From NCBI RefSeq assembly GCF_000315625.1, contig NW_005434596.1, positions 234,360 through 298,359 of the forward strand: DNA of 64,000 nucleotides, given 5' to 3'. The notes under the pieces were generated by a model. The model was not told the DNA's origin. It saw only the letters and a list, made by a program, of their open reading frames with translations, and did no database searches. The translations under genes and the position numbers were made by a program. Of the stretch, positions 3,660-41,148 are shown in pieces; the stretch's first letter is position 1; each line of letters begins with the position of its first letter. This DNA comes from Guillardia theta CCMP2712 (Eukaryota; Protista; Cryptophyta).

Positions 3660-6911
<3,252 letters not shown>

Positions 6912-7093: not shown

Positions 7094-13754
<6,661 letters not shown>

Positions 13755-17950: not shown

Positions 17951-19019
17951 AGAGGCGTCGAGAGATTGTGAGGGCGCTATCTTTAGAGCTTGCGAAGAGA
18001 TGGGGAAGATACAGAGATGGAGTTCTTCTGCGGGAGGAGCAGAACTAGCTAGCAGGAAGACGTGCAGTCGAAAGTGCGAGGATGGAAGAGGAGGCGAAGA
18101 ACTGGTTTAAAAAGAGCAAGGGGGTGGAGTCCAATAATGGGGGGTAGGGGTTATCACCCTACCTCGTGGATGAGTGCTTGGAGTTTACTCATCAAGAATC
18201 GACGTCACTTCACCCCTAAATAATCAAAATAATTACTTGAAAGTGTATGGTGGGGTCCACCACCATCAACTGAATCCACATCATGTTGGAGGGAAATTTG
18301 AGAAGGTTCAGGGTCCAAGGGGGGTGGCATCTGTGACACATCGTTCGGCTGTAAGCTCCGAAAGTGCAGGCGGGATATCGGGCAAAGGCTCCGTGGCTGA
18401 CATTATGCGGTATAAAATCTTAACGCTTCGAGACTTGAGTAAAACATGAGCAGCGCCAAATCATAGCCTTTGGGGTTTCTGTCCACCTGAATTACTACCA
18501 ATGGTCACGCGGTCAGATCAATAATATGATATAGAACCTCTATATGGTTTTAATTTGACTTACAAATATGTAAATACGCGTGATGCTCAATGCACGAGGG
18601 CGTCAGCTCCGTAGGAGTCTGTTCGCATGGATCGGAGCACGGATACCACACTTGAATCCACTCGTGACCTGCGCCTCGAAATAACTCGAGTTCTACGGTT
18701 TAATTGGGTTGTAAAGATATCTCAGTATAACGGATGGTTCGTTTTTAAGGCCGGTTTATAAAAATTGCGGTGGCCTTGTGGTTTTGCAGGGGTAGGGGAA
18801 GGGGGGTGGTGGGGTCATCAGGTGTTTTGAAATGACTATGTTATCCCCACCATTATCCACGGTGATGGAGGGGTAGAAAGAAGAAATGGTTCTGTAGAGG
18901 GTAGGGTGATCTAACTTCCCTCGTACGAAGAGGGTGGGGTGCTACAGGGGCTGCTAGGCAGAGTCGGGAGTCACGCAACTACTGCCTGATTACCCACCCT
19001 CGCACAGGAAGGACAGACA

Positions 19020-22000
19020 GTGTGTACTCGATGTCCATCCAGCCTCTCACATAACATATTTGGATCATCCAGTATCTCGGATTGTAACTCATGCGACAAG
19101 GGATACTATAACTACGATGGAGTATCCTGCACCCAGTGCCCTGTTAATTCCAACACCACAGTTATCGGGTCTGCTTCCGTCTCCGACTGTCAGTGCAATG
19201 TTGGGTATTACATGGATCTGGCACAATATGTGTGTATCTCCTGTGGTCCAAAACAAACCACTAGCAGCACGGGCTCTACATCCTCTTCTTCATGTTATTG
19301 CTTGGGTAACTACTACAGGGACGCCAACGGATACTGTACTTGCCCGGCGGGAAATTACATCGACTCGAACAACGATTGCAAGACCTGCCCTTACAACTCT
19401 TACAGCACCTCCATAAACAGTTCTTCTTGCGTACAATGCCAACCGGGCTTTAGGACAAGTTCAAAGACCTCAGGATCCTGCTATAGGCTCACCAACCCTT
19501 ACAACGACAGGAGCGTTGCATATCCTTATTGGACCAATTGTGGAAATTGGGATTCTATATCACAATATTATTGCGGTTACACGACATGGGGTGTGGGAAA
19601 AATAACTTACAAATGGTATTGCCCTGAAGGTACATCACACGTTGTCATATATGATTTGAAATCCAATACTGATATCAAGTCATGTACATCTGGTTTGACT
19701 ACATTGAACACTTCATTGAATTATTACATTCATACACAAACCGGAGGTTATCAATCTTATATCTTTGACACGGTGATAGAGCTTGAACTCAACAACTACT
19801 ACAGGCCGGTAGATACAATATATGAATACATAGGACAGAAGACATGGGTGAGAATGATGACATATGGATGGACAATCCCAGAATTGAAGATCAATACAAC
19901 TACAAATGAAATCATCAGATTTGACAATGGATGCCATCAATTTTCCTACTTGACACTGTACTCTGAAACTGACATCTACACTCCAGCCACTTTGAAATTA
20001 TCAATAGATTGGTCCAGTCCTGATTACATGTGGCATGAAAATGCAATCATACACATTACGATCGACAAAGATGCCACACCCCCCAAGTCAGTGCAAATCA
20101 TCATTGAAGGTATATGTAAAAGTTCCATATGCAATGGGCTGGTGGTCTATATTACCAAACATAGCTGCGGGGGGACGGGTGAGATATCATGCTCTACAAT
20201 GTTCTCGAAACCAGTACTTTTGACCTACATGGGTTACGACGGTGTTTATATGCAATCCGATGAATATGGGTCGATTGAGGTCAACTACAAGAAGTTTGCC
20301 ATCTATTACGATAACACTGTGGAGTATGGCCCAACTTATTATGGGACTTACTTCCATGTCTGTCTATCGCCTTCATATCCTATGCTAAGAAGTCTAGAGG
20401 GGATACGTTTCCAATCACAGGTTCCACATTGGTACGAAATCATGAGGTACAAACCTTGTTCTTATGGTTACTATGCGACAACCAACGTGAGCGACCCTTG
20501 TCAGAAGTGTCCGGTTGGAAAGTTCAGTAATCTAGTCAGCTTCATCCCAGACGACCCCGATCTGATGGAAGATGCTTCTTTCATTTGCCAGCCTTGCAAG
20601 CCTTACACCACGACCGACCCAACAAAACCTGCATACACTTCCAAGCATTGTATCTGCGCATCGGACACGATAATCTACAATCCTGCGGAATACCCTAATG
20701 CCATAGATTTTACCATAACGGAAAGGAATCTTTACGCTTGGTGTCTTCCCAGTGATTGTCCCATTGGTCAATACCATAATATGGATTATTACACAGTATA
20801 CAACTATGGATATTACAATTTTCTTGGAGGTTACTTGGTTGCTTCTACTACAATCATCTTCAACATGACCAATTTCATCCTTCCGTCCAGAACATGCTAC
20901 CCCTGCCCCTTTTCTCATTACAGAAACAGTAGCATCAGCAGTCAGAGATGTGTTAGGTGCCCGGAGACAAAAGGAACAAACTTTAAAGGGGCAACCTCCA
21001 TAGATGACTGCGTCTGTGACCTTGGGTTTTACTTCTCTGTGACGGAAGCCAGATGCATACCCTGTGCAATTGGATTCTACAAGGACGTGGCGGGCAATGA
21101 AGCATGCACCCCCTGCCCTGCAAACACCTCAACATTGATCGTTGGTGGCAATTCTTTGATGAGCTGCGTCTGTGACAAAGGATACTATAGCACGCAAGAT
21201 GACCAATGCGTTCCCTGCGCAGTAAAGACTTACAAGGCCGTGAAAGGAAATAATATTGAATGTGTAGAGTGCCCAGGGGACTCTACCACCGAGTCTATTG
21301 CCTCACCCGACTTTTCCGCGTGCAAGTGCGGTCCTGGATACAAAGGAGTGGATGGTAGCAATTGTGAACTTTGTCCTTCTGGCACTTTCAAGCAAACTTA
21401 CGGAAACTACCCTTGTATCAACTGTACTGACACCTACGTGACCGTGGATGACGGGACTGGGAACCAGGGGTGCTTCTGCAACTATGGCAACTACCAGGAT
21501 GTAACCGGAATGTGTGTCAACTGCCCAATCAACACCTACAAGGACACCATATCGAACAGCCCGGCATGCACTCCTTGCACCAACAATAGCATAACTTTAC
21601 AAGAGGCTTCGACAAGTGTTTCATCCTGCCTCTGCGAGCCAAGGTATGGGCTCAACAGCGACGGCGAATGTGTGAAATGCCCAAGCAACACCTACCGGAG
21701 TGGTTACAGCAGGAGCGCTTGCGTAGGATGCCCACTATATTCAACCAGCCAGGGATTTTCTGTCAAGGAGGATTGTGTATGCAACGCCGGTTACACGGGC
21801 CCCAACGGTGGTCCTTGCATCCCTTGCAATGACCGCACTTACAAGCCCCTACCCGGGAATGCCAATTGTACCTCCTGTCCCAGCAATACGGTATCCGCGC
21901 TTGCCTCCGTATCCGTCAACTCTTGCATCTGCAAGCCCGGTTATTTTGGCCCCGCTGGGTTGCCCTGTCAGCCCTGCGATGTGAATGCCTACAAGCCAGA

Positions 22001-24101
22001 GACCGGGGACTATCCCTGCAGGTGCAAGCCAGGATACACGGGTCCGGACAATGGCGTCTGCTCCGCTTGTCTTCTTGGCTATTATAAGATCTCCTACGGG
22101 AGCTCGAGCTGCGATGCATGCCCACCGGGTTCCAGCACTCTGAATCAAGGCAGTACAAGTCGCGACCAATGCCTTTGCTCACCCGGTCACTTCAGGCTCA
22201 ACGGAACCTGTGAGGAATGTCCCATTGGCACCTACAGCACGACATATGAGGCTCTCACTTGCATTCCCTGCTCAGGCAACACCTCCACCCTCTACACGGC
22301 ATCCTCGAGCCCCAACCAATGCCTTTGCAAACCGGGTCACGAGCTCATCTCAGTAGGAGATGGATACATCAAGGATTGCCAGGCCTGTGGACAGGGCTTC
22401 TTCAAGTCCACGCTCAACGACGGCCCTTGCTCCATCTGTCCCCCGAACAGTTGGACTAAAGGGGTATCACCTCCAGTGCAATGTCGGTGTGTTGCAAACT
22501 ATGCATATGACGGCATCGACCCCACCGATTGCAACACCTGCAGCGAGGATGCGTACTGGGACGGCACACAATGCCTGCCCTGCCCGCTCTATTCATCGGG
22601 CCCATTTGGTAGATCCACTCTCAGTGAATGCGTCTGCCTGCCTGGCTACTCCTACCCCAATGGGATAGAGTGCCTGCCTTGCCCCTACAACACTTACAAG
22701 GATTCGTCAGGAAACCAAGATTGCACCAAGTGCCCTTTCAACACCATGAGTGGGCTGGGCTCCGATAGTGTGAGCAAGTGCGCCTGCCCATATGGGTACT
22801 TCAAGAACGGTGACGACTGCGACCCCTGCCCTGCCGGCACCTACAAGCCCGACTTTGGCAACACCAGCTGCCTGAATTGCAAGCTCAACAGCATCTCACA
22901 GCCTGGATCGAAGATCGAGGGCTTCTGCCTCTGCAAGCAGGGATACTACCTTGACAGCCAGAAAAACTGTGTCGAGTGCCAAGGGAGCACTTACAAGGAC
23001 ACTGTCTCTAATGCTCCGTGCCTCTCATGTAAGCAGAATGAGTTCTTTTCTGGTAATGACCACACCACCTCTTCCAGCTGCGTGTGCGACATTGGTTATT
23101 ACCAGCTCTTTGATGGCAGCTGTGTGGAGTGCAACGTGGGGGAGGTGAAGTACTTCCTTGGCCCGGGCCCTTGTATCAACCCCCTCAAGGGTGTAGGTTG
23201 CAGCTCTCTATGCTCCATAGGGCAGCGTCTTCAAACCAAAGAGGACGTATACGACCTCTACATACAGCAGTCGGGCATATGTGGGCAGTCCGTCCCGACG
23301 CTTTACAAGTACTACAACACATCCACCTCCTCTTACACCACGGTGAATGCGACACTCGAGACCTACCTTGATCAGTGGGGGGATGCCGCCAACTGGAAGG
23401 AGAAGACAAGGGTGATCATCCCAACGGACTATACCGCCCCCGAGTGCTATTGGTACCTTAGCAACGTGCAACCGAGTGTCTTGATGCTGAGCCTGAGACT
23501 CAACGTTGACATGGCCGAGGTGGTCTTCAAGGCTGGACTCTATCGCTGCAGCAGCTGTGGCTATTCCGCAGGTCAGTGTAGCACCATCCAGAGCTTTGAC
23601 CTAAAAGACACCGCACTGCAGCAGATCGAGGTGAGCATCGACGTATACTCCTGTGTCGTGCTCAGGGTCTATTCTGAAAACTTCCCCTTGATACTCTACA
23701 ATCTCAATACCTTGGGGCTTTCGCATCCTCCACAGGTTCTGCTCCAGGTCACGAGCAAGCCACCCACCTGCGAGTGTGTCAACTGTGACGCTTCTGACAC
23801 CGCCATCGCCATTGTCAAGCCCTCCTTCATCAAGATCTGGGCTTCAAAAGCTCACGCTTACGGTTCCATTGAAGTTCTTAATGACATGATGCGGAACACC
23901 TCACTAGATCTCAAGAACTCCGCGGAGGACTGTGTCATCAAGAACCAGCTGCATTCCAGAAGCTTCGACGTGACCTTGGATTGCACAGACGGTCCCTTAC
24001 TCTCCATGGCCACGATGGTGCGGTTCAGTTCGTTGCCTCCTATGTCAATCGCAAGATCATTTTCGCTTGCAAGGTTGACATCTTGGACAGCTCAATCTTG
24101 A
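19020..24101 (+). CDS. Giant Cys-rich repeat protein part 1 (ephrin-receptor-like/GCC2-GCC3 repeats); apparently 5'-truncated and frameshifted into part 2
   Basis: 1693-aa ORF with dozens of CxxCPxxTYK...CxxCPxxSxT...SxxxCxCxxGYY repeats. No signal peptide; in-frame TGA at 18987. Confidence 0.85.
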   Translation: MCTRCPSSLSHNIFGSSSISDCNSCDKGYYNYDGVSCTQCPVNSNTTVIGSASVSDCQCNVGYYMDLAQYVCISCGPKQTTSSTGSTSSSSCYCLGNYYRDANGYCTCPAGNYIDSNNDCKTCPYNSYSTSINSSSCVQCQPGFRTSSKTSGSCYRLTNPYNDRSVAYPYWTNCGNWDSISQYYCGYTTWGVGKITYKWYCPEGTSHVVIYDLKSNTDIKSCTSGLTTLNTSLNYYIHTQTGGYQSYIFDTVIELELNNYYRPVDTIYEYIGQKTWVRMMTYGWTIPELKINTTTNEIIRFDNGCHQFSYLTLYSETDIYTPATLKLSIDWSSPDYMWHENAIIHITIDKDATPPKSVQIIIEGICKSSICNGLVVYITKHSCGGTGEISCSTMFSKPVLLTYMGYDGVYMQSDEYGSIEVNYKKFAIYYDNTVEYGPTYYGTYFHVCLSPSYPMLRSLEGIRFQSQVPHWYEIMRYKPCSYGYYATTNVSDPCQKCPVGKFSNLVSFIPDDPDLMEDASFICQPCKPYTTTDPTKPAYTSKHCICASDTIIYNPAEYPNAIDFTITERNLYAWCLPSDCPIGQYHNMDYYTVYNYGYYNFLGGYLVASTTIIFNMTNFILPSRTCYPCPFSHYRNSSISSQRCVRCPETKGTNFKGATSIDDCVCDLGFYFSVTEARCIPCAIGFYKDVAGNEACTPCPANTSTLIVGGNSLMSCVCDKGYYSTQDDQCVPCAVKTYKAVKGNNIECVECPGDSTTESIASPDFSACKCGPGYKGVDGSNCELCPSGTFKQTYGNYPCINCTDTYVTVDDGTGNQGCFCNYGNYQDVTGMCVNCPINTYKDTISNSPACTPCTNNSITLQEASTSVSSCLCEPRYGLNSDGECVKCPSNTYRSGYSRSACVGCPLYSTSQGFSVKEDCVCNAGYTGPNGGPCIPCNDRTYKPLPGNANCTSCPSNTVSALASVSVNSCICKPGYFGPAGLPCQPCDVNAYKPETGDYPCRCKPGYTGPDNGVCSACLLGYYKISYGSSSCDACPPGSSTLNQGSTSRDQCLCSPGHFRLNGTCEECPIGTYSTTYEALTCIPCSGNTSTLYTASSSPNQCLCKPGHELISVGDGYIKDCQACGQGFFKSTLNDGPCSICPPNSWTKGVSPPVQCRCVANYAYDGIDPTDCNTCSEDAYWDGTQCLPCPLYSSGPFGRSTLSECVCLPGYSYPNGIECLPCPYNTYKDSSGNQDCTKCPFNTMSGLGSDSVSKCACPYGYFKNGDDCDPCPAGTYKPDFGNTSCLNCKLNSISQPGSKIEGFCLCKQGYYLDSQKNCVECQGSTYKDTVSNAPCLSCKQNEFFSGNDHTTSSSCVCDIGYYQLFDGSCVECNVGEVKYFLGPGPCINPLKGVGCSSLCSIGQRLQTKEDVYDLYIQQSGICGQSVPTLYKYYNTSTSSYTTVNATLETYLDQWGDAANWKEKTRVIIPTDYTAPECYWYLSNVQPSVLMLSLRLNVDMAEVVFKAGLYRCSSCGYSAGQCSTIQSFDLKDTALQQIEVSIDVYSCVVLRVYSENFPLILYNLNTLGLSHPPQVLLQVTSKPPTCECVNCDASDTAIAIVKPSFIKIWASKAHAYGSIEVLNDMMRNTSLDLKNSAEDCVIKNQLHSRSFDVTLDCTDGPLLSMATMVRFSSLPPMSIARSFSLARLTSWTAQS

Positions 24102-27100
24102 TCAAGTTCGACGGCAAACTGGTTTACAGCATTGACAACGCACAAGATGCCGATCACTACGTCGAAGTGGAGGTCGGCTTTGGAGAGCACATGCTGGAGT
24201 GCTACTCTTCTTCGCTGTCACACAGCACAAACTCTCTTCAAATCGTTTACTTGAACTGGACCTATCACTATCAACCCTTCTCAATGGAGATCAACAACTA
24301 TACCGAGGGCGGCTATGCTTGCTTGAGAGAGACAGACGAATGCGGCGACTGCACTCTTGGAAGGAGGCCAAAGTATCCTGCTTCCTCCTGCCCTTGCGAG
24401 CTATGCCCTGCAGGGACCTATGGGACATACCAAGTTGGGCCCGATCCCTATGCATGCGAGCTCTGTGAGTTTGGCAAATACAGCTCAAGCCCAGGTTCCA
24501 TAGAGTGCAGCCAATGTCCCGAAAACTCCATAACATCCTCCCAGGGTGCTTCAAGGGTGCAGGACTGCGAGTGCAAGCAGGGCTACTACTTTGATGTATC
24601 AAGGTCCTTATGCAAAGAATGCCCTCCAGCAACTTACAAAGACTTCATCGGCAACCAGGCCTGCCTCCCTTGCCCAGGAACCAAGATGTCATCCATCCCA
24701 GGGTCCACGCAAGCCGATCAGTGCTTCTGTCTCGGTGGATTCATCAAGACCTCCTCCACTGTCTGCGAGCCCTGTCCTGCCAACACCTACCAGCATGACA
24801 TGTATACCTGCAAGGCCTGCCCCTTGAATCACAACTCCAGCATCGCCTCCCCCAGCATCGAGGGCTGTGTCTGCAGCGACGGCTATGCGGGGGAAAACTG
24901 CACCTCCTGTGATATTGGATACAGGCAATTGGGAGGAGCCTGTGTTCTGGATAAGGACTTTGTCAAGGATGTCAGCGCATCGCTCCACACCTGTGCCCTC
25001 TTCTCTTCCAAGGAGGTAAAGTGCTGGGGGTTGAATGATATGGGACAGCTAGGATACCTGGATGTCGCTAACCGTGGTGATGACATCAATACAATGGGAT
25101 CGAACCTTGCCGTCCTAGATGCCATCAGTCCTTTTGTAGCCGTAGTCACGACCAGGGGTTGGAGCTGTGGCCAGATGACATCGCTGGAGATCAAGTGCTG
25201 GGGCAATACCTGGCATGACACCAATAATCTCCAGTTCTTTTTTGATGGCCCTTCGGACCTCAACTTTGGAGACAACATCTATGCAACCTCGCTCTCTGCC
25301 GGCATGGACCACGTCTGTGGCATATTCAACGACCAGAGGGTGAGGTGCTGGGGAGACAACAGTCACGGGCAGCTCGGGACAGGGGACAGGACCCCTTACT
25401 ACCTCCTCCCCTACCACATCACCCCGTCTCATCCCAACATATCCTTCCCCTCCCCACCCAGGAGTATAGCATGTGGGTCTTACCACACCTGCGTGCTACT
25501 TGAGAACCGTAAGATATACTGCTGGGGCAACAACCTGCACAGGCAGCTGGGCTTCATCTCTTACAACAACGAAGACATCCTCAAGTACACCCAGTTCGCC
25601 ATAACCCAGGTCATCTACCCTGACAAACTCTATGCAAGAGGCTCAAGAACCTGTGTCATCGACATGGAGGGCCAACCCGATTGCTGGGGGTACTGCGACG
25701 ACGGGACCTGTGGTGCCAACAACACCATCGCCCTGCAGACTGGGAGGACGGCACTGAAGCTGGCTCTTACCATCAACACCACCTGCGTGCTGCTTGATAA
25801 CCACAGGGTATCATGCTTTGGCAGCAACCAGTACGGACAACTTGGCATTGACTCCAGTGACCAATCTCTGAAGATAGGCTTGCTTGGCACGGATATGTCG
25901 GATGCTCTCAGGTACAACAACATACCGCAGACCTACGTCGATGACATCTTCTCTGGGTACTACCATTTCTGCTACACCGACAACCTTGCCCTCCTGCGGT
26001 GCTGGGGCTACAATGAGTTCGGTCAGCTCGGATATGAGAACACTGTGAATCTCGGAGATCGGAGCAATGGGATCCTGATGGCACAGGGACTCGTTCCCAT
26101 AAACGTTGGTTCCATCGTCATCTCTAGCTGTGAGTCCGGCTACTTCTACAGCCTGGACCTTCTCAGATGTGTAGAGTGCAACGCCTGCCCCAGTGGCAGC
26201 TTTGCCACGAAGCCCTGCTCTACCTACCACAACACGGTGTGCCAGCCCTGTGCTACTAACCTCACATCGGGCCTGGACGCCAACAGCTATTCCGAGTGCA
26301 GCTGCAAGAAGGGGTTTGAGAGGGTGATTGCGGGTGACAAGGACTCGGCTTGCAAGGCATGTGACCTTGGCTACTTCAAGATTGTAGGCACCGACGAGAG
26401 ATGCCAGCCCTGCCCCAACGGCCTTGGATCCACCTTGTATGGTCTTGAGAGCCTTGCCCAGTGTGAATGTCCTCCGGGATACTACGGCTCCAATGGCGGC
26501 GAATGCACCCCTTGCCCAGTAGACACTTACAAGGAGGACTTTGGATCTTTGCAGTGTCAGGACTGCCCGGACCTCAGCAAGAATGCAATCCTCGGCTCCA
26601 CCTCTATCTTGGATTGCAAATGCCAGGAGGGTTATTACGACATCGGTGTTATCAACAACGTGCTCATCAATTGCAGGCTTTGCCCCAACGGCAAGTACAG
26701 CAACACCATAGGTTCCAAGTCTTGCATCTCCTGTGGCTACGGCCTGACAAGCCCTACGGGATCGAGGCTCTACTCGGACTGCACTTGCGCGGACAACTTC
26801 TTCTTCTACAACTTTACCAACCGCTGCGAACCTTGTCCCAACAACTTCTACAGGAATCCGGGAGATACGGAATGCAAGTTCAGGGGCACCAGCTACGTTG
26901 AATGTACTCCAAACTCCACCTTGAACAATCCATTCGATCAATCCATCTATGACTGTGTCTGCGACTCGGGTTTCTATGGGAACTACCTGGGTTGCGCAAA
27001 ATGCCCCAGTTACAGCATCAACATCAGAAACCAGCTCAACAACTCGAGGTTTACTGATTGCAAGTGCATACCGGGCTATACGGCTTTTTCCTTGGAGGAG

Positions 27101-30100
27101 TGCAGACCATGCCAATCGGCCACTTACAAGGACTTTATCGGCAACGAGGCCTGCACAAGATGCCCTGACAATCAGGCCTCCGATCCGGGCTCTATCTCTC
27201 TCTCGCAGTGCCAATGCATCCCCGGATACGAGCTCCTCACTGAGAACGGCGTTACTGACTGCTTTCCGTGCAAGTACAACTATTACAAGAACATAACCAG
27301 CAACGAGCTGTGTCTTCAATGCCCTAACAATAGCTACACCGTATCCACTGCCACCAACTCGTTCGAGTTTTGCATCTGCACCAACGGATACTATGGCACT
27401 GCTCCCTGCACCAAGTGCGACTTTGGTTACTACTCCAACTTCAACGAGATCGATATGGAGTGCAAGGCGTGCCCTTTGAACTCTTACACCCTCAACAGGA
27501 GCTCTACCAACGTCAGCGACTGCCTCTGCCTCCCGGGATTCTACTCCTCCACCGGCATTGGTCCTTGCTCGCCCTGTCCGCTAAAGACCTACCAGCCGAG
27601 CTACGGCAGCACGACCTGCATTGCTTGCAGTCAAAACACCGTGACACTCTCTGTTGGATCGAGTGCCATTTACGATTGCAAATGCATTGAGGGTTACGAG
27701 GGCGACGGCACATTATGCCTCCCTTGCCCTTACAACTCCTACAAGAGCATCATCAACAACTCGGCTTGCGTCACATGCCCCATCAACTCCTTCACCAATA
27801 GAAGCCTTGTCAATCTCATCTCTAGCAGTGTCGTCAACTGCATCTGCGCCCCTGGCTACGTGGCAGACGGCATCCTGGCCTATTGCGACGTCACGGCCGA
27901 AGGATACTACAAGCCTCTGTCAGGAAGCAGCATCGTGGCCTGCCCGCTCAATACCATCTCCTCCACCGCAAGTAAGAGTGTTTACGACTGCCAGTGCAAG
28001 CCCGGATTCTACGGGAGTGACGGAAACATCTGCCTCATCTGCCCAGCGAACCATTACAAGTCGGAGAGGGGAAACAGACCCTGCACCCCTTGCCCTGAGA
28101 ATATGCTATCCGCCAAGGGAAGCACCTCCCTGTCTCAGTGCTACTGCCCAACCGGATACGGCATCCTATACAACCCACAGACGATGGCATACGATTGCAA
28201 ACCCTGCTGGCCGCAAGGCTTCAACCTGTTCAATGGCACCAACACACCCTGCAAGTACTGCCCACCCAACTCGGTGACACTGCCAAACGTAGCTTCGAGC
28301 ATATCCAACTGCACCTGCAAGAAAGGATACGAGGGCCTGACAGTCGAGAGCTGCTCACAATGCTATCCTGGCAAGTTCAAAGATACTGAAAGCTTTGGTT
28401 CTTGCAAGACCTGCCCCACAGGACTGATTGCAGAGGATTATGGCTCAGAGAAGTGCAAGTGTGACAACAACAAGTTTGAGTTCCAAGGACAGTGCTATAA
28501 CCTCTACCCTGAGTTCTTTGACACGTTCCCCAGCGCTTGCGCCGGTTCGCTCATACCCTACAATCAATCGATCTACGGATGCACCTGCATGCCCGGCACC
28601 TACGATCGCAACGGGTTTCTGGACTGCGTATCCTGTCCTGCCCACCAGACCACGGACCTTGGCTCTTCACAGTGCTACTGCGTAGAGAACTACTACATGG
28701 ACTCGAACGGGGACTGCCAGATCTGCCCCTCGAACAAGGCGTCCCCCGCAAAGTCCACCAGCGTGCTTGACTGCTCCTGCCCGCAGTGCGAGGAGGACGG
28801 CCAGTGCGTGCCCTGCGCCTACCCCTGCCCTGTCAACAGTTACTTTGAAGTCAAGCCCTACAGCATCGACGACTGCCTTTGCAACAAGGGCTACTACAAG
28901 TCCGGGACAGAGTGTGTCTCTTGCGGGATAAACTCTACCACTTCTTCCGCAGGAGCCACCGACCCGTCCTCTTGCGTCTGCTCTCCTGGCAACTTCCGAG
29001 ACTCCGGGGTCTGCAAGCCATGCCCCATATCCTTCTACAAGGCATCGGAGGGAGACGGGGCCTGCTCCCCTTGCCCCTCCAACACCTACACCTCCGTGCT
29101 TGGGCAGACGGTGTGCCAGTGCTCCGACCTCAAGGTGGGGCCCGGGGAGAGCTTCAAGATCGTTTCCCTGCAAGAGCTCATCATCGACACCACCGACTGC
29201 TATATCATCATCGACCAGTACCAACTCATTCCAGGAGAGTGGATCTCGGGAACCTGCGAGTTCCGCATCCAATCCCTTGTCTCTTCGGGAACCAACACTC
29301 TCAGGGGAACCAATCCTTTCGCTATCTACTCTGTGGGACTGGTCAACATCACGGGCAACATTAGACACCTTGGATCCTTGTCCGAGACCAGGGGAGCGGG
29401 CTACTATGCGGGCTTCTGCTACTATGGGGGATCGGGAGGCGGCTTTGGAGGGCAGGGAGGCTTTGGCTCCGCCCCTGGAGGCCCAGTCTACGGCGCCAAG
29501 GAGCTATGGCCGTGGTCTTCCTACCAAGGCTCTCCGGGAGGTCAGGGAGGTGACTGCAATGTCTACAGCACGGAGACCAACCTTGGAGGGCAGGGAGGAG
29601 GTGGGGTGCTGATCGCCTCCTACACGAGAGAGGTGATCCTGGGGAGCGTCGACGTCTCCGGCAAGGACTCTGAACATCAGGGCACCATCAGGCCGGGAGG
29701 TGGAGGCAGCGGAGGAGCGATCCTTCTCATCTCACCGTTGATGGTCAAGGCTACCAACCTACTAGCCAAGGGAGGCTCCGGAAGCTCTGCCACCTTCTCG
29801 GGAGGAGGGGGAGGGGGAGGTAGGATCGCTATATGGTCCCCGGTAATCTTCTACGAGTCCATCTCCGTGCTGAGAGGAGAGGGTTACAACCAAGTGCCCG
29901 CCTTGGATGGCACCATCTACGAGGTGCTCAGGGTCCCAGACGACTATCAGACACCTGCGCTCCAGTGCTATGCCTGCAAGAACGGATCATACTACCAAGA
30001 CAACCAGTGCATCTACTGCGGAGACAATCAGATCACCTCTTCAGTCACCGGCCAGTGCGAGTGCAAGGCGGGTTACACCTCGCTGAACAACCACGGGCAA

Positions 30101-33100
30101 TGCATCGCCTGCGCCATAGGGAGCTACAAGTCTCTACCAGGCATCGGCAACTGCACCCAATGCCCTTACGTTGGCTCCTACTCACCGCAGGCCTCTACCT
30201 CACTCTCCCAGTGCCTCTGCAACTCGGGATACTACCTCTCCCAAGGCAAGTGCGAGAAATGCCCTGTAGGCACCTATAGCTCCTTCCCCAACACCAACCC
30301 AAGCTGCCAGGCCTGTCCCAGCAGCCTCACCACCATGTACACAGGAAGCACCTCGTTCCAGGAGTGTAGCTGCCCGCCCGGCACCTACTACGACCAGTTC
30401 AATGTCAAATGCAACAACTGCAGCATCGGATACTACTATCCCTCTTACGGGTACCAGCTTGGCTGCATCGCCTGTCCAAGCCCCACTATCACTCCCTACA
30501 CCGGCAGCTCCTCCAAGAGCGACTGCAAGTGCTCCGTGGGCTACTACTTCAACACAACCCTGCAAGACTGCAAGGCCTGCGAGGTTGGCAAGTACGATCC
30601 CAACTCTCTCAACGACTTCTTGCCTTGTACTTCATGCCCCGTAGCAACCTACAACCCGCTAGAGGGCAGCATCGGTCCACAGTCCTGCATTCCTTGTCCA
30701 AGAGGCACTTACTCCCTCGTATCCGAATCGAGCTCTCTGCAAGACTGCCAGTCCTGCCCGAAAGAGGACGGATCCGAAGAGATGGAGATCTGGGTGGCAC
30801 AGAGCGTCTACGTCCACACCGCCTCCGGTGTCAACCCCTACGACATATTCATCGACATCATGAATCAGATGCCAAGGCAGGACCAGACCAACGTGAAGGA
30901 GGTGATCAACTCGATGCTCCAGTGCTTCAATCAGTCCAACATACTCATGGGCAACGACGCAAGGACACTTCTCCACTGGATCACGCAGCCCTGTGCCCTC
31001 TGCATGATGGTGACGAGCTGGTCGATCCAGCAGGGCGTTGAGGTTGTGTCCAGCGACATCCCTCTGGCGAACAAGGATTTCATGAACATCGTGCTCTCCT
31101 CCGCCTACCAGCACATGCTCAACTACCTCCAGCACCTCGACATACTCCTGAACAACTGCAAGATCTCCACCAAGACGAAGCAGACCAAGTATATCGCGGA
31201 CTCCTTCGAGCTCTTTAGGGGAGCCTACGTTCACCCCGAGCTCGACAAGGTGATCTACTGCCCCCTCCCTCCCGCCACCTTCTCCTTCGTGGTCGACGTC
31301 GGCTCGGGCTGGAACAACAAGGTGGGGGTCTTTGAGCTCACCAACAAGTGCGTCTTCGCCAACATCTTCAACGTCATCTGCAACCCGAAGCTCAAGCCTT
31401 CCGACGAGTTCCTGCAGGAGATCGCCGTGATGGAGCCTACGAGGGAGTATGTGGAGGGCATGACCTCGATCGAGGGCAAGTGGGTCAACTACATGATCAA
31501 CAACGTCATGGAGCAAAGGGACTCTCTCTACAGTGAGACGGAGGCGCTCTACTTCAAGACCACCGGCAAGCACGACGCATCCAACAAGAACTACTCCGTC
31601 CTGATGTCCCTTGCCTTCAACACCGGCTCTATGGCGAGCGTCGACTCCACGATGAACCTCGTGATGCACCAGGTCAACGACTTTGCCTTCTACTCGGAGT
31701 CCACGATCATCAAGAACACGGTGGATGTGGCCAAGGCTTTGGAGACCAACACGGAGATGGACGACCTCATCAACGAGCAGCTCTACAGCATGATGAAGAA
31801 CAAGCGATACTGCTACCGGTGCATGGACAGCATGGGCCTGACGATGATGCAGGATTACCTGACCTCGCTCAACGAGATCTTCCAGCTGAGCTACACCAAC
31901 CTGAATCTCCTCTGGGTTCTTTTCATGAGCACGCTGAGCTACTCCCTCCCCCTTGAGCCTGCCTGGGCCACGTGCGTGATGGTGGTGGACGCCGCCTGCC
32001 AGCCCGAGGTGGTGGTAGACAAGAAGGTTGCAAGCCTCAGCGTGGGAGGGTCGAAGAGGGACAGCACCGGCTTCAACTTCGTCCAGGCCAGCTACACCCA
32101 GTTCATGAGTGCCATGAACAAGCTGGTGGCCGTCGGCGCCCCCGAGCTCGTCGTTTCCAACTCCAACTACTCCGACGGCAAGAGGAAGAGGATGGGCCTG
32201 ACGCTCGCGACGATGAACAACAAGGAGATCAACGAGGAGAACACCACCCACCTCACGGATTACGGCAAGCCCGTCTTCATCTCCGAGGACTGCCACAAGC
32301 TGCTGGCGGACACGGGGATGGCCAAGAACTTCATGCGGGAGGCTTGCGAGAAGAAGGAGAGCTCGAGCCAGAGCTGCAAGATCTCGGAGAACTACAACAT
32401 GAAGCTGATCATGATCGAGGAGCCGAGGCTGCTTTGCATGGCGACCAACAAGAAGGAGATTGGCAACGGCGACGCCTTCTCCATGGCTGCCCGTCTCAGG
32501 TTCCATGCCTCCGGTATGTCCGACGAGTGCGTGCCTCTGAGGTTCAGGGAGGGGGAGGGCAGCGGCAACCAGCAGCCGACGGGAGGGAGGAAGGTGAGGA
32601 TCAAGGAGACCAACGACGTCACGTTTGCGATGAAGAACAACCTCTTCAACATGCTCCCCAACGCGGGGGTCAAGAACAACAGCTCGGTGGAGTTTAACCT
32701 CAAGAGATCAAAGAAGAACGTCATACCGGTGCTTCTCTTCCACCTCACCTCTCACGTGGAGCAGATCCTGACCCTCAGCGGCTTCAAGCTCAACTGCAAC
32801 GACAACCACGGAGTGAGCAGGCTTATCTGCAGTGAGATGAACTACTTTATGTTCCGCCTGATGGAGCCCTTCCTCTCCACCGACATGAACGATGAGGAGA
32901 GGTTCACGAGGAAGCAGAAGGGGCTCATGTTCAGCTATACGGTTCCCCTTCACGTCATCAACACCGTCAACAAGAGGATCTTGTCGGAGATGTTCAAGGT
33001 CGTGCCCACCGAGGAGGACGACGAGGTTGTCTTCACCTTTGACTGCAACGCCATCGTCAGGGAGAGCGTGATCAACCTGCTGTACTCGGATATCGACACG

Positions 33101-35102
33101 AGCCTGGTCTGCGCCGGCTACCTCTGCAACATCACTTTTGATACGGTGATGTACGTTGTCTTCCGATCCGTCATCAGGATGCTGGAGTTTCCGAACCAGT
33201 ACAGCCTCTCCTCCCTGGTCAGGCTCTTCAAGTACGGGAGCGAGGCGCTGACGAGGGAGGAGATGGACAAGCTCAACCTGCTCAAGGTGTGGATCCAGCA
33301 TCGGTTGAAGTTCTTCGTGACCAACCAGGACCTGAACGAGACCAAGCCCAAGCAGGACGCGAGGGAGATGAACGAGATCCTCAAGATCGATGAGCACTTC
33401 TCTAGGTCCGGAGAGGGTGACTTTCTCTCGGGCGCCAACAGGGAGCGCTACGGCAGGAGCATCTTCCTCACCGACTCCTGTATGCAGGCCCAGAGCAGGG
33501 GAGACGACGAGCAGACGGAGAACAAGAATATGTGGAAGGTCCTGCACCAGTTCCTCATCCATATGCCGGAGGTCCAGCATGCCATGGCGAGCTTCAGGCT
33601 GAGGAAGGAGCTCATGACTCCCGATCTCTTCTACCACCTGTTCAACTCCAAGAAGATGAATCGCAGGTGCTTGAACGAGGTGTTTGATGAGAAGAACATC
33701 AAGCTCTCCGAAGTTCTGGTGAAGCTTGGCATCGATCCTACTACTATCCCTTCCTCCTGGCAGAACGTCAATCTCTTCAACTCGCAGAACGACGAGGCCA
33801 ACAGGAACTCCAACGTCTTCAACATGGTGATTGCGGGCCAGAACTGCGCGCTGACGGTGAACATCATCTCTCTCTTGCTCATCGCGCCGATGTTCAGGGG
33901 TGACAACGTCAACATCCTCCATCAGCTCCAGCAGAAGCACACCATTGCCGAGGTGGTCAAGACCTCTATGGAGATGCGCATTCCCAGGACCTACTGGCCC
34001 GTGGACAAGATCCCCACACTGCAAGTGGACCACATGGGAGAGTGGGTGAACTTCAACATGCAATCTTGCAGGAGCCAGCCGCAGCTATCGAAGCAGTTCT
34101 TCAAGAGGATCAACGATGTGGTTTGGAACGGGACGGTGCCCAAGCTCAACAGCATGAAGAGCACGATGAAGCCCTTCTTTTTAGAGGAGCTCTACTGCTG
34201 CGGGCACTACGTCAACGTCTGCAAGAGGAAGGTGGACGGCATGGAGCTGAGCGACAACCCCGTCACCTGCGATGACTACTTCAACCTGATGGAAATCAAC
34301 AACGATGCCTTCCCCTTCAGCTTCCCCAAGTTCACGGGCAACGGCAGGTATATCTTCACCAGGATCAAGCTCTGGTGCATCGTTGACATCCTCAACGACC
34401 ACTTCGACATGCACATTTACAAGGTCTCGGAGGAGGAGGAGCTCGAGCTCAAGAGCCATCTAAAAGGCAGCCTCCAAGACCTCTTCAGGCTGATCTACAA
34501 GATGAAGGTTGTGCCCTTTCCCATGATCAATCACAAGAGATTGGTCTATAGCCATCCCGGAGTCCATGGCCTGTACAGGGATTTCAGGGATGAGATCGAT
34601 GGCGGCAAGCCCATTGATTTTGGCACTCTGGTGCAGCACGAGGATGGCTCCTGGTGCTCTAGGGAGGGCAACTACCTGGTTGAGGTGAAGTACCTGGACG
34701 AGGACGATGAAGACAACGAGGGGAGGGGCTACCGCTTCGAGATCGGCTTGCACCACATCCATAAGGTTTTGGTGGCAGAGCTGACACCCATCCACGTCAA
34801 GTTCGATACCTTTCCGGACAACCTAGGTGCCAGCAGCATCGCTTACTTTAAAGATCTGACCGCTTTGCTTAGGTTTCATCTACCCCAAGAAGTTCAGGGT
34901 GAGCGAGGAGGGAGAAGAGTACGTCAAGGTCTTCTATGTCGCAGACGAAGACATCACCGTGTTCGTGGGCGTCAGCACGATGACCTCGGATGACATCAAC
35001 GACAAGGTCAAGACCACCTGCATCGATCTTGCGGTGGAGGATATGATCTACAGGGCGAGGCCAGGGGACAACGTGGCGGATGTCTTAGCCTACAGGCAGT
35101 GA
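23981..35102 (+). CDS. Giant protein part 2: Cys-rich repeats, RCC1-like propeller, Gly-rich domain, then a ~1400-aa non-repeat region with degenerate AAA+ motifs; last exon after intron 34827-34872
   Basis: 3670-aa ORF. RCC1 repeats (VKCWGLNDMGQLG, VRCWGDNSHGQLG, CWGYNEFGQLG) at ~24970-26110; poly-Gly block at ~29390-29900; Cys repeats stop at ~30760. A 46-nt intron joins it in frame to ORF 34899-35102. Confidence 0.85.
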
Positions 35103-35169
35103 CCAGATACCCGATAAGCCTCAGTAAAAACTATTTGAGCTCAAACCCCTTGATTCTTTGCAGTCCCGG

Positions 35170-35640: not shown

Positions 35641-35656
35641 GAGTCTCTCTCTCCCC

Positions 35657-37557
35657 TCACTTCATTCCATTGTAATAAAGGGTGCTATACACCTCGTCCC
35701 CATTGATCGGGTTGTTGAGGACGAAGAGCTCTATGTTCTGGATCATGGGGAAGCTGAGAACCGGAAGCACGTGCCTCCAGCAGTCCTTCCATACGTGCTT
35801 GCACTGGTAGGCACAGAGGTAGAGCTGGAAGAGCTTGGTCAAGCTGAAGTGGGCCAGGGCGCTTATGCTCAGAGAGCCCAGGCATTCCATGCGGAACTTC
35901 GCCAGCTCCTCGAAGGCCTGCTTCTTGTAAGTGATCATCTCGATGATCTTCTGCAGGGTGGTGAGGTCTGGGTTGGTGATGGGGGTCTTCAGCACGTTCA
36001 TGACCATATCTGCATTCAGCACCTTCTCGAGATATTCCTTGTGGTTGAGAGTCGGCATGCTCATGATGATGTAGGTCATGAACCTTGTCCTCTTGCTGAT
36101 GGTGTTTGGGAATCTGACGTAGTTCAGCCAGGAGTCGAAGCTGTTCATGTTATAGACCGTCTTGATCCTGTCATCGGTGTGCTTGGCCACCAGGCTCTTC
36201 AGCCTCGGCCTCCCCTTGTGCAGTTGCAGGATCTTCTGCCTCATCTCAAACTTGGCGTTCTCCCTGATTGTCATGAATATGTTGATGTTGTGTATGAAGT
36301 CGTTGCTGAGATGGCAGCAGGAGGTGATGGAGGATATCAGCTCGTCGTAGTCCTCCGTGTTGAACCTGTAGTCTGCATACTTGCTCGTGAACTGCAGGGC
36401 CTTGTTCCTCATGTTGCCCTCAAAGATCTCGACCAGGAACCTCTCCATGGCGATGAAACTTGTCAGACCCATGACGTTCATCAAGAGCAGGATCTTGCAG
36501 CTGTTGACGATGTCGATCTCTTGGTTGCCTATGAAGCCAACGGATTTGAGCAGGTTCGTATGGATCCTGAAGATCTCGTTGCCGGCGAGCTCGGCCTCAA
36601 GGTCCTCGGAGTTCATCCTGATGTGCTTGATGAACTGTATCCAAGTGGAAGTGTCTCCCAGGGTGTTGCTGTTCTTGAAGGCTATGTTCTCGTACACCCA
36701 GATCCAATTGACAAACACCGGGCTCTGGTACTCATCCCCGAGATTGTCTGTCTCCTCCTTGTAGGTGGTGAGGATGAGCTGCTTCACCTTCTCGTAGGCC
36801 TCCATGGATATCTTCAGATCGGACACTCTATCGATTAGGCTCTCAGTCTCCGGAAGGCTCTCTGCTACGGATTCCCCTACGGACTCCCCTATCGACTCAC
36901 TGACGGATTCACTAACGGATTCTGTCTCTGATTCTGGATCCGAAGTCTCACCCTCTCTCAACCTATCGAGCCTCTTCCCAATGTCCTCTATGTCAAGGCT
37001 ATGCTTGGCAGATGCCGCCCTGTCTCTCTGTTCCTGCAGGATCCGCTGGTTCCTATCCTCTCTCTTGCGGTGGGCAAGGAAATGAGCCTTGATGTGCTTG
37101 ATGTTCTTCATGCAGGAGATGAGGAAGGGGACGATGCTCTCTGGGTCATTGTGGTCGACGCTGATGTTGGAACACCCCTGGACATACCTCCCCACAAGCT
37201 TCTCGGTCAGCACCTTCTTCAGGCTCTCTTCAGAGAGGTTCTTTACCGGCTCCGCCTTGGGCTGCGAGCACATTCTCTCCGCCTGCTTCCACTCCTGTGC
37301 GCTGATGCTGAAGGCGGACCTTGCCTTGACGTCCTTGCCAATCACCCTGAAGGGCATCTTCAAGCTTCCGAGGACCTTAATCTCCTTGCTGTGACTCTCC
37401 AGCGCATTCCTGTCTATGTTGCTGATGTCTATGGATGGAACCTTGTCGATGGAGGACAAGTTCTTCAATGCGCTCTCGTTCATAAAGTCTGGTTCGTGCC
37501 TTGCCTGTGAATCGAGTGAATTTAAATGACTGGATGAGCCATACATACAGATTTCAT
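35657..37557 (-). CDS. Orphan ~618-aa protein with an (ESVS/ESIG) repeat linker; 3-codon first exon and a 44-nt intron
   Basis: ATG AAA TCT|GTATGT...TCACAG|GCA AGG CAC is in frame with the long ORF 35657-37546. Confidence 0.75.
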
Positions 37558-37567
37558 GGACTCGCGC

Positions 37568-38218
37568 TCATGGGCATGTCTTGGGCTGCGGCTTCCACTG
37601 CGGGACGCTGATCTTCAGGAGCTTCGAGGGCGTGAAAGGGTCCTGATTGATCCTTATGATGTGGTCCACCTCGTGCGGGAGGCTGATCTTGAGCTCCTCA
37701 TACTTCTCCACCACGCTGCTCTCGAAGCCCACCCATTGCAGGCTGTAGATCGGGTTGCAGTGCTTCATGTTGCAGTTTGCCAGCAGCAGCTTGTATCTAT
37801 CGTAGGGGCTTGTCTGCATGAGACTCTTCGAATCCAGCAAGGGGCAGTCGAAGACAAGGATCTTGGGCACGCTGGCCTCCAGAGTCACCTGGTCTTCCGT
37901 GTAGTGAGCAAGAAAGCAGGAGTTGGCTGGCACCGCCTTGCAGAGCATGAGATCCGGATGCGCCAGATACAGCTTGTCGTCCAGGAAGATAAGAGTGTTG
38001 CCATCCCGATCCACGTAGATCAGGAAGGAGACCCTGTGTTTTGGGAGCCAGGTGGCCATAGGCTGGCCCTGGATGGATTCTGGAGCTTGCTGCCCTGTCT
38101 TGAACGGCTTGGTCTCTACGATCAGTGGCCTTAGCATGTCCAAGGGTATGTTGAACACTTGGTATACCTCCATCAGGCACAAGTTCACCACAAACCTCTC
38201 CTTCATAATGCTTTCCAT
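37568..38218 (-). CDS. Divergent nucleotidyltransferase (mRNA capping enzyme/ligase fold)-like protein
   Basis: 216 aa; SFLIYVD...FLAHYTED...ILVFDCPLLDSKSLMQTSPYDRYKLL resembles motifs III/IIIa and the following helix. No KxDG motif. Confidence 0.5.
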   Translation of the reverse strand: MESIMKERFVVNLCLMEVYQVFNIPLDMLRPLIVETKPFKTGQQAPESIQGQPMATWLPKHRVSFLIYVDRDGNTLIFLDDKLYLAHPDLMLCKAVPANSCFLAHYTEDQVTLEASVPKILVFDCPLLDSKSLMQTSPYDRYKLLLANCNMKHCNPIYSLQWVGFESSVVEKYEELKISLPHEVDHIIRINQDPFTPSKLLKISVPQWKPQPKTCP

Positions 38219-38331
38219 CTTTCAATGCTCCCAACTATTCAACAGCTCAAAGTAGAATTTGAATCGAAACTAAAAAAAAATGAAAGGATGTATTTAAGAC
38301 TTTGAACCGAACTCGGAGTGACTTGTCAGAA

Positions 38332-39621
38332 ATGGACGACAAAGATCCCTTTTCTCTGGCCATCGGAGTTGTGTATGTGATGCTGACCACCTCAGTCGGC
38401 ATCTTCAACTTCTTACAGAAGTTCTACCCATCGTTGGAGCTGCTGAAACAGTGCAACGTTGAGATGAACCAGTACACAAGCAACCCTTGTGCCTGCTGGC
38501 GCTCCATCCGGCCTACCTACTACACCCGCAGGAACTATGAGAGTATTATCTACGAGCCGAACAAGATCCAGAGCCTTGTTCCTTTCCTTTTCGTTGCCCT
38601 GTCACTGGTGCTGGCGTTCATGAACAAGATCACGGAATTGTTCGACATGCTGCGAGTATGCAACTACGTCAACTTCTTCCTGTCCTACGTCGCGATCATG
38701 GATATGTTCTATTGCCCCGTAGAATACAAGAAGGTTGTCATTTACAGCTACTACAAGAACGATGCCATTCTCAACTTTGGTTTCATCGTGTTCACGGTCT
38801 TTATTCTGAAGCACTTTGTTCCGAATCTGTCGAGCATTGAGAACGAGAAGAAGAGACTAGCCTACAGGAAGAAGTATCTCTTCAGAAGCCCTCCCGTCTC
38901 GATTCTGTGGTTCATCATCCTTTGCACGAGCTTGTGGGGAATGTACGCTTACGACGAAGACAACGACGAGAACTTCCCCTACCGATGTGCTTGCATCTTG
39001 TTCTACTATCTGAGCATCGCGCAACTGCGACGCTCCGTGTTCTATGTGATGTACAGCAACAAGAATAGTGAGTACATGCAAGCCATCTGGAATACTAGCG
39101 GAGTATTCAAAACGTTGCGCAAAAGCACCTCACAATACTATGTGTGCCACGTGAGCGAATGCACGGCCAGTTTCTGTGCCAATGTCTTCGCCACCACTCT
39201 CGGGCCTCGGTACATGGTCGTCATCGACGATACCAACCCGATCAAGGTCATCTATTGCATCTACTGGAAGAATGGCACCACCATGAGAACGAATCTCTTT
39301 GGCACTTACAAAGATCAGGTCAAGGTAAAAACCCGCATCCTGCCCATCAGTGGACTGCGGGCGGTTGAAGTTGAGCTATTCGATGCCGATCCAAAGAACC
39401 AGACTTTCTACCTCCCTCGCAGAGGCCAACATGAAACTCCAAACGGCATCTGCAAGGCATTGATCGTTAAGCTTGGATCCCCCGACGCCAGTTTCACCAT
39501 CTCCAAGTTGAAGACTGGAAAGAGCATGCAGGAGCTGAACGTGAATGTTATGTTCAGTGCCTACTTCATGTTTGATGATAATCCATATTGGAAGCAAGTG
39601 ATCCAGTTCAACACTCTCTAA
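38332..39621 (+). CDS. Orphan multi-pass membrane protein with a soluble C-terminal domain
   Basis: ~429-aa intronless ORF with five to six hydrophobic segments in the N-terminal ~250 aa. Confidence 0.7.
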   Translation: MDDKDPFSLAIGVVYVMLTTSVGIFNFLQKFYPSLELLKQCNVEMNQYTSNPCACWRSIRPTYYTRRNYESIIYEPNKIQSLVPFLFVALSLVLAFMNKITELFDMLRVCNYVNFFLSYVAIMDMFYCPVEYKKVVIYSYYKNDAILNFGFIVFTVFILKHFVPNLSSIENEKKRLAYRKKYLFRSPPVSILWFIILCTSLWGMYAYDEDNDENFPYRCACILFYYLSIAQLRRSVFYVMYSNKNSEYMQAIWNTSGVFKTLRKSTSQYYVCHVSECTASFCANVFATTLGPRYMVVIDDTNPIKVIYCIYWKNGTTMRTNLFGTYKDQVKVKTRILPISGLRAVEVELFDADPKNQTFYLPRRGQHETPNGICKALIVKLGSPDASFTISKLKTGKSMQELNVNVMFSAYFMFDDNPYWKQVIQFNTL

Positions 39622-39762
39622 AAGCCGCACCGAGCGGATCAAGGTAGAAGCTATGAAGGGGCCTGTAATTGGGATTCTCTGAGCTGTAATAAACGTCCAA
39701 ATCTTATACCTGTCTCCCTGCACGATATATAGCGCACCGCAATTACGCACTTGCATGCAGAG

Positions 39763-40140
39763 ATGTCCATGAAATTGTACCTAGGTGATAAGCTTGACTT
39801 GGTCAAGGCAGATGATAAGATCGTGGTGGAGAACGTGGGGAGTGTGATCCTGAGCCTCGGGAAGGAATACGCCTTCCACGGCTTCGACATCAAGAAGAAC
39901 GAAAGCGGCTACGTCCTCTCCGCCATGCCCTCCCCGCATTCCAACATATCGCTGCTTGACCTGCAGATGATCAAGGACTGCAACCCGGTCAGGGTGCAGG
40001 ACGTGTTTGTGAGCCTGTCGGAGGCGGGGCTGAGGGTGAGCGTGAATATCCTGAGTTCCAACGTCCCCGTCATCCTCACGGAGACCGACGTTATCAGGGT
40101 GAAGAAGAGGAGGATATGGAATTTATTTCATAAACCCTGA
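39763..40140 (+). CDS. Orphan ~125-aa protein
   Basis: Clean ORF with island-type codon usage; basic C-terminus VKKRR. Confidence 0.65.
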   Translation: MSMKLYLGDKLDLVKADDKIVVENVGSVILSLGKEYAFHGFDIKKNESGYVLSAMPSPHSNISLLDLQMIKDCNPVRVQDVFVSLSEAGLRVSVNILSSNVPVILTETDVIRVKKRRIWNLFHKP

Positions 40141-40144
40141 TACC

Positions 40145-40378
40145 TCACTGATGGAAGATCTCCTTGTGTGTGATGAACTTGGGAGGGTTTTTGCTCCTGA
40201 ACCTCTCTATCACCTCTGCAACCTCCCACTTTGAGTTTCTCCAGGGGCAGGGGCAAAGGTGGTCCACCGGGCATCTCCTCTTCTGCAGCGGGCAGTAGAT
40301 GCATCGCTTCGAGCGGGGGAAGAGGTTCGGATAGACCCTGCCCATCACCTTGCTCACCTCCTTGCTAAGCCTTTCCAT
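40145..40378 (-). CDS. Small Cys/His-rich putative Zn-binding protein
   Basis: 77 aa, CIYC...CPVDHLCPC; convergent with the previous gene, 4 nt apart. Confidence 0.6.
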   Translation of the reverse strand: MERLSKEVSKVMGRVYPNLFPRSKRCIYCPLQKRRCPVDHLCPCPWRNSKWEVAEVIERFRSKNPPKFITHKEIFHQ

Positions 40379-40519
40379 TCACGTTTATTCATTACTGACT
40401 GTCCACGTACTGATTTTTAACTTAACTTTGAGTAAAAGATTCGCAGTATGAGAGGGTGTCCAATAGCACGAGTCTAAATAGCATGTTTAAATATTGAAAT
40501 TAAACCGTATATTTTTATA

Positions 40520-41080: not shown

Positions 41081-41148
41081 GCTGCTGCTGCTGCTGCTGC
41101 TGTGAAGGAAGTTACCAAGGGAGGGGCTGGTGAACAGCAGCAAGGAAG

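Follow-up and report, generated by a model that had tools for sequence, protein, structure and literature searches.

The closest described counterparts of the locus reported here are the mirusviruses, in which, according to Medvedeva et al. (PMC12768974), heliorhodopsin and spliceosomal introns are typical traits that are rare in nucleocytoviruses (statements on the literature, here and below, refer to the accessible parts of the papers cited). In the genome MIRUS_G_0022, PF07699 genes are numerous and are accompanied by an RCC1 gene and by a stand-alone gene of 627 nt with a guanylyltransferase fold (PMC12768974); the corresponding mirusvirus orthogroups occur in 524, 192 and 51 genomes. The assembly of the cryptophyte Guillardia theta holds capsid, triplex 2 and protease genes of mirusvirus clade E03 (Zhao et al., PMC10827195), and two heliorhodopsin transcripts are recorded for this alga (PMC7714340). 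Large-virus DNA with expressed genes in a protist chromosome is exemplified by the AurliV-2 integrant of Aurantiochytrium and by algal giant endogenous viral elements (PMC12606086). Here we describe a block of about 21 kb in G. theta CCMP2712, located within a 64,000-nt stretch (the window, to which all coordinates refer; NCBI RefSeq assembly GCF_000315625.1, contig NW_005434596.1, positions 234,360 to 298,359). With a probability of roughly 60%, we read this block as a rearranged piece of viral DNA that was likely inserted recently and whose donor was a large DNA virus, likely a cryptophyte mirusvirus transcribed in the nucleus; a recent insertion from some large virus, taken by itself, we consider highly probable.

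Compared with mirusviruses, the block has a GT-AG intron with a CTGAC motif, giant PF07699 genes, an RCC1 propeller and a stand-alone guanylyltransferase fold of ~210 aa, and heliorhodopsin occurs in its sister lineage; unlike them it carries an MCM-like gene (no such annotation being present in the mirusvirus structure table searched) and no virion gene, and the likeness is one of domain names. The E03 signals come from the G. theta assembly, whose scaffolds also carry paralogs of the gene module described below, but they are marker-based, do not cover this locus with its fusion, its transcription and its free 98% counterpart, and the module is not tied to those capsid genes. Whereas AurliV-2 and the algal elements are whole or near-whole genomes, the present block is a fragment. 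In the literature searched, subscription papers not included, neither the locus nor its environmental counterpart was found to be described.

Environmental copies and the internal junction

Twenty of the 24 listed sequencing runs, in nine studies, contain the stretch, with six metagenomes from three studies; eight of the 24 were aligned to the window in detail, with one metagenome per study and with X8, X17 and X18 among those left out. In the marine metagenome X6, a 58,234-nt contig (depth 294) matches 30759-37300 with 109 differences over 6,539 nt (98% identity), and a 17,821-nt contig (depth 309) matches 21309-30759 with 537 differences over 9,449 nt (94%). Both contigs leave their similarity to the window at 30759, with loose ends continuing into other sequence: beyond this point the former enters the N-terminus of a 1826-aa gene, and the latter further Cys repeats. 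At its two ends the 58,234-nt contig continues beyond the matching part, by 18.4 kb at one and, past 37300, by 33.3 kb at the other, and the same break at 30759 was found in X13 and X16, from two further studies. Because the X6 contigs split at 30759 and carry block genes, the window joins, at this position, two pieces that lie far apart in a genome of 76 kb or more. The identity of the window to such copies was 94-98% across marine, freshwater and riverine studies, and the virus is likely still circulating.

Since both environmental contigs break at 30759, the 10,803-nt open reading frame (ORF) at 24191-34993 is a product of the junction, namely a chimera that runs in frame from a Cys-repeat/RCC1 gene into an MCM-like AAA+ gene that lacks its 5' part; the C-terminal 1,400 residues fall into a different protein family, with members of 1700-1830 aa, and the in-frame state of the fusion is due to chance. 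An earlier reading of the window, made from its sequence only, had pointed to ORFs of up to 11 kb; such a frame is present, though as the product of two genes. The junction as found in the window is crossed without differences by contigs of runs X1, X2, X7 and X9.

Upstream of the junction, a two-base insertion at 24035-24036 splits a single Cys-repeat gene into two ORFs. In its first part the first in-frame ATG lies at 19212 (1629 aa, ORF 19212-24101), and the gene is likely 5'-truncated. PF07699 Cys repeats were detected in both giant ORFs (E 8e-79 in ORF 19212-24101 and 3e-110 in the first two thirds of ORF 24191-34993), giant Cys-repeat proteins being among the features that the sequence-only reading had listed for large eukaryotic DNA viruses, and an RCC1 propeller lies beside them in the second. 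The 5' part of the Cys gene (19000-21300) has a guanine-plus-cytosine (GC) content of 0.41-0.44, is missing from the X6 copy and is partly present in X13, which covers this variable part; this segment is variable and mosaic, and the protein to which it belongs is likely exposed at the surface. Depth in X6 was zero over 17301-21300, a span that includes part of a host gene. The freshwater run X13 also contains a second population, of greater depth (120-190x) and divergence, that matches the MCM-like gene only, within 30641-34642; it is another relative of the virus.

The block shows two traits of endogenous viral elements, homologs in a non-host context and signs of decay (junction, frameshift and truncation). 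Scans of IMG/VR contigs with block sequences gave no relative in five of five cases, and PHROGs, NCBIfam, PDB sequence and phage tblastn searches returned nothing significant for the block proteins.

Small genes and the conserved module

Five of the six small ORFs (156, 629, 216, 429 and 125 aa) have 90%-identity cluster mates on the 58,234-nt contig, and for two of the six wider families exist, so the claim that all small genes are orphans failed; for the 77-aa ORF no cluster mate was found in an exact look-up. The 629-aa protein has a 62% relative on a 238,337-nt contig. The 216-aa protein has a nucleotidyltransferase fold, with a template-modelling score (TM) of 0.70-0.75 to capping enzymes, and its homolog P0044 matches PF01331 with E 6.8e-4, below the cut-off. 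Unlike mRNA guanylyltransferases, this family (194-248 aa) lacks the OB domain and, in nine of nine sequences, the KxDG motif I, the site reading ATWLP[KR]xR. A snurportin-1 cluster is among the look-alikes of the 216-aa protein (feature score 0.92); snurportin-1 is a non-catalytic cap binder with a capping-enzyme fold.

The MCM-like gene, a gene for a protein of ~600 aa without known function and the capping-enzyme-fold gene form a conserved module, found in metagenomes, in Hanusia phi and on G. theta scaffolds. The same order, with a large gene, a 550-aa gene and a 253-aa gene, recurs at 34-38% identity on L001, a JGI contig of freshwater type. In G. theta the order is repeated by gene models 148025-148027, and three more scaffolds, those with models 145970, 146304 and 146901/118942/118945, carry parts of it, all belonging to a distant lineage; H. 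phi contains both module lineages. A second, 38%-identical virus lineage is integrated at four or more G. theta scaffolds. Directly upstream of a 38%-identical MCM-like paralog in one G. theta model, P0011, a heliorhodopsin was detected (PF18761, E 2.3e-15, above the cut-off); heliorhodopsin is absent from the block itself. This model (145970, 3449 aa) looks over residues ~1-1590 like adjacent viral ORFs run together, including the heliorhodopsin and membrane proteins. Judging by accession-number offset only, both published G. theta heliorhodopsin transcripts appear to fall in paralogous module islands. A likeness of another model, P0013, to the TATA-binding protein, seen by eye, found no support.

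The MCM-like gene

The intact relative of the MCM-like gene, P0001, is a near-identical 1826-aa protein encoded on the 58,234-nt contig, and ~420 of its N-terminal residues are missing from the window. The family is tiny, with six representatives among 1.84 billion proteins, and seven matches were collected in all, including an H. phi protein at 56%. The MCM likeness was first predicted from a motif order that we take to be that of MCM proteins. At the position assigned by this order, the lysine of the Walker A GK[ST] is missing in seven of seven sequences, which read S[TA]GFN, so that ATPase activity appears unlikely. With VIA-align, the five best of 48,161 solved chains were MCM subunits (Z 6.4-7.0, a range that is common according to the tool, for a model with a mean predicted local distance difference test score, pLDDT, of 39.8). 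The Atlas returned no usable match for this part. Thus the protein shares motif order and top-ranking chains with MCM/clade-7 AAA+ helicases but differs from them in its length (1700-1830 aa in the family), in the missing Walker A lysine and in having no significant sequence or profile match; an MCM-like ancestry is likely, as far as the model allows. The sequence-only reading had named capping-enzyme folds and replicative ATPases as known from large eukaryotic DNA viruses; the block has the former, and an MCM-like fold is weakly indicated.

Transcription and introns

A 46-nt GT-AG intron with CTGAC is absent from two long contigs, one of 16,235 nt in X7 ending at 35278 and one of 16,084 nt in X9 over 19032-35161; these runs, from two studies, are taken as RNA runs solely because this intron is missing. 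It is retained in X1 and in X6 DNA. Because the environmental P0001 copy carries the same intron and reads through its site, the intron is viral; intron-less relatives align across the spliced form of the MCM-like gene. The spliceosomal introns proposed from the sequence are therefore borne out for this one, and a second intron is predicted on the minus strand at 37548-37505 (GTATGT..CACAG). In X21, where ~6% of the raw RNA reads were read and 200 reads aligned, eight reads carry poly(A) behind 35145, and a minus-strand signal was seen at the 77-aa ORF. Because of the frameshift, translation of the 16-kb RNA would mostly give a Cys protein that is cut short.

The two viral transcripts with the best cover begin at the block borders and run inward, a pattern suggestive of host promoter capture at both. 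Cover by X7 and X9 is close to nil over 35700-39700, which hints, weakly at best, at quiet internal block genes.

Composition, borders and position of the block

Perfect microsatellite runs number 0 in 19000-40400 (21,401 nt) vs 49 in 1-16000 (14,776 called bases) and 21 in the right flank (43301-64000). The block is accordingly free of them, as noted from the sequence, but the poor zone is wider than the block, with one run each in 16001-18999 and 40401-43300, both of which contain host genes. Reading frames cover 98% of the block, and the contrast in GC content is small (0.528 vs 0.564 and 0.540 in the flanks). The tight packing described earlier holds in part: gaps of 16 nt (35640/35657) and 4 nt (40140/40145) are exact, whereas the gap of 10 nt needs a start at 37557 together with the predicted second intron, the plain ORFs being 21 nt apart, and two other gaps measure 113 and 141 nt. 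The coordinates of all features are collected in Table 1.

Table 1. Features of the virus-derived block and of its immediate surroundings (window coordinates)
Feature	Position	Strand	Remarks
Left host neighbour	16910..17950	-	346 aa; transcribed away from the block
Virus-derived block	18990..40394		left border ~18990-19030, right border 40140-40394
Cys-rich ephrin-receptor-like repeat gene, part 1	18990..24101	+	frame open from 18990, no start codon there
Spliced 16-kb transcript	19032..35145	+	5' end ~18998-19032; poly(A) behind 35145, 8 reads
Two-base insertion	24035..24036	+	bases missing in X6 and X13 environmental copies
Cys-repeat gene, part 2, with RCC1 propeller	24037..30759	+	3' end lost at junction
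Internal junction	30759..30760	+	in-frame fusion of two distant viral loci, one shared base
MCM-like AAA+ gene without its first ~420 codons	30760..35102	+	P-loop degenerate
GT-AG spliceosomal intron with CTGAC, 46 nt	34827..34872	+	removed in X7, X9; retained in X1, X6 DNA
Acidic ORF, 156 aa	35170..35640	+	no family; 90% mate on 58-kb contig
ORF, 629 aa	35657..37546	-	unnamed conserved family, relatives 36-62%
Stand-alone mRNA capping-enzyme (guanylyltransferase) fold, 216 aa	37568..38218	-	without KxDG motif
ORF with hydrophobic stretches, 429 aa	38332..39621	+	no family; mates on environmental contigs
ORF, 125 aa	39763..40140	+	no family; mate on 58-kb contig
Cys-containing ORF, 77 aa	40145..40378	-	transcribed; putatively viral
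Short genomic repeat, very high copy	40395..40439		host side of right border
Right host neighbour	41149..43215	+	688 aa; transcribed away from the block

The block lies between two head-to-head host genes, both pointing outward. Among the listed repeats, no pair qualifies as terminal repeats of the block (18990-40394), and no target-site duplication was found for it; neither integrase nor pPolB domains were identified among its proteins by Pfam, and in these traits it does not match Polinton-like viruses or integrase-driven elements. Host and viral proteins occur together on one 419,931-nt scaffold, possibly the source assembly of the window itself. A contig of 24,450 nt from X1, which may be the source run of the window, is identical to the window over 23001-40426, and its computed start is at 15977, in a host microsatellite. 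In X1 and X2, the depth of the block and that of the right host flank are of the same order.

The 45-nt sequence at 40395-40439 occurs once in the window but has a summed contig depth of 200,000-475,000 vs 84 nearby, with many different flanks; it is a very high-copy short interspersed genomic repeat. A promoter scan at the right border was empty, the scan being of a type unsuited to eukaryotes. The left host gene (16910-17950) has a weak DUF7769 match, and its contig depth in X9 is very high, 5,509 as compared with 119 at the viral transcript. No Pfam match was obtained for a JmjC-like host exon at 16061-16174. Elsewhere in the window, four nearly perfect tandem copies of 52 nt lie at 55895-56105, and the left flank contains two assembly gaps (N runs) at 7380-8117 and 9169-9654.

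Discussion

The earlier proposal, that part of a divergent large DNA virus was endogenised here, is supported by the near-identical environmental copies without host flank, by the spliced intron that is also present in the environmental copy, by the capping-enzyme fold and, weakly, by the MCM-like fold. The internal junction is crossed unbroken by DNA contigs, as is, by length, the left border, and intron-rich orthologs without a viral link, an outcome that the sequence-only reading had set against itself, were not found. The block is real and foreign, but it does not show a gene island in its evolved state; that it is rearranged, truncated, very recent and transcribed had escaped the earlier reading. 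Its suggestion of a mirusvirus-like lineage is plausible but indirect, with no virion gene in the block.

Several observations weigh against a mirusvirus origin or against details of the history proposed. As to the donor, no capsid, portal, terminase or triplex was recognised among the block proteins, the agreement with MIRUS_G_0022 is one of domain names and not of sequence, the mirusvirus structure table searched has no MCM annotation, heliorhodopsins also occur in a coccolithovirus, and the Atlas clusters nearest to the 216-aa protein are viral but mostly labelled Nucleocytoviricota. As to the MCM-like protein, its AlphaFold model, built with nine sequences, is of low confidence (mean pLDDT 39.8), Foldseek found no match for it at E 0.001 in PDB or BFVD, and hhalign comparisons of the family with the BJ1 MCM and with 19 haloarchaeal MCMs were not significant. 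As to the insertion itself, the right border is unbridged, every listed contig breaking within the 45-nt repeat, and the only bridge over the left border is the length arithmetic of the X1 contig, from what may be the source run; X13 has a low depth of 5.7-6.4 over 17301-18634 in the left flank, and some RNA on the internal 156-aa gene means that border promoters cannot explain all expression.

The strongest competitor, possible but distinctly less probable, keeps the same history but has a donor outside the mirusviruses, either a nucleocytovirus with a nuclear stage or some other large DNA virus with such a stage. The Atlas labels just mentioned fit it, as do one marker of the nucleocytoplasmic large DNA virus type recorded for G. 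theta in a published table (PMC5294986) and the Cys-repeat proteins and heliorhodopsins of some nucleocytoviruses. By Pfam, no double-jelly-roll capsid, A32 ATPase, PolB, D5 primase-helicase or VLTF3 was found in the block, which is, however, only a fragment. The free copy contains a spliceosomal intron, which nucleocytoviruses generally lack (PMC12768974), the nucleus-dependent Ariadnavirales included; this intron, the absence of IMG/VR relatives in all five scans and the six representatives among 1.84 billion proteins speak against this donor.

Less probable again is that the environmental contigs come from the chromosome of a related alga with a longer insertion, in which case chromosomal or episomal elements may be the main form in which the lineage persists. 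Virions cannot be seen in metagenome contigs, the module is found on at least four G. theta scaffolds and in H. phi protein sets, and X13 does have some depth on the left host flank; but X6 covers the module at ~300x and the adjacent host gene not at all, though a 90%-identity ortholog of the host protein exists, and the identity of 94-98% seen in marine, freshwater and riverine studies still calls for recent horizontal spread.

That an old domesticated cluster, inherited vertically in cryptophytes, now serves the host is very improbable: the H. phi homologs at 56% and the well-covered 16-kb spliced transcript in two studies would suit it, but the window copy is damaged (junction, frameshift, missing 5' end) where 98%-identical copies elsewhere are intact, and H. 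phi also has the second, 38%-identical lineage, as expected under repeated invasions. No better placed is an assembly artefact, in which viral contaminant contigs were mis-joined to each other and to the host; the right border does coincide with the repeat that breaks all listed contigs, but four runs cross the 30759 junction without differences, X1 and X2 have depth of the same order in the block and the right host flank, and the X1 contig starts, by length, in host sequence.

Under the preferred reading, a recently inserted fragment of a nucleus-transcribed virus, the virus would deliver its own DNA to the nucleus, where pieces of it may have been captured by end-joining repair, because the junction has one shared base and neither terminal repeats nor an integrase were found. 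The resulting chromosomal fragment would be unable to make virions. The fused Cys/MCM-like unit is transcribed, spliced at the viral intron and polyadenylated, and the two strongest viral transcripts, which run inward from the borders, may be driven by the halves of a host promoter region that the insertion interrupted. The MCM-like and capping-fold proteins are predicted to be non-catalytic and, in the free virus, may act as adaptors on the host replication and cap-binding machinery. A bolder version, which we put forward tentatively and regard as rather unlikely in full, is that the locus derives from an undescribed, abundant nuclear cryptophyte virus lineage whose dead MCM and dead capping-enzyme mimics hijack the host replisome and cap-binding machinery, that the alga is a cultured host for isolating the 98%-identical virus, and that the 16-kb chimeric RNA may affect susceptibility.

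Insertions of this kind and mirusvirus capsid genes in G. theta were already known; the locus and the host-virus link are new. Few mirusviruses, and few large viruses of cryptophytes, have to our knowledge been assigned a host. That a chromosomal fragment matches environmental contigs of high depth at 94-98% constitutes a direct host-virus link and provides a polymerase chain reaction target for isolation, and the alga would be a growable host for a likely circulating virus. The locus further shows a host removing a viral spliceosomal intron and captures the first steps of decay (junction, frameshift and truncation) while transcription continues. Finally, it brings to light a small gene family whose MCM-like and capping-like folds could account for the use of the nucleus by viruses that have no replication genes of their own.

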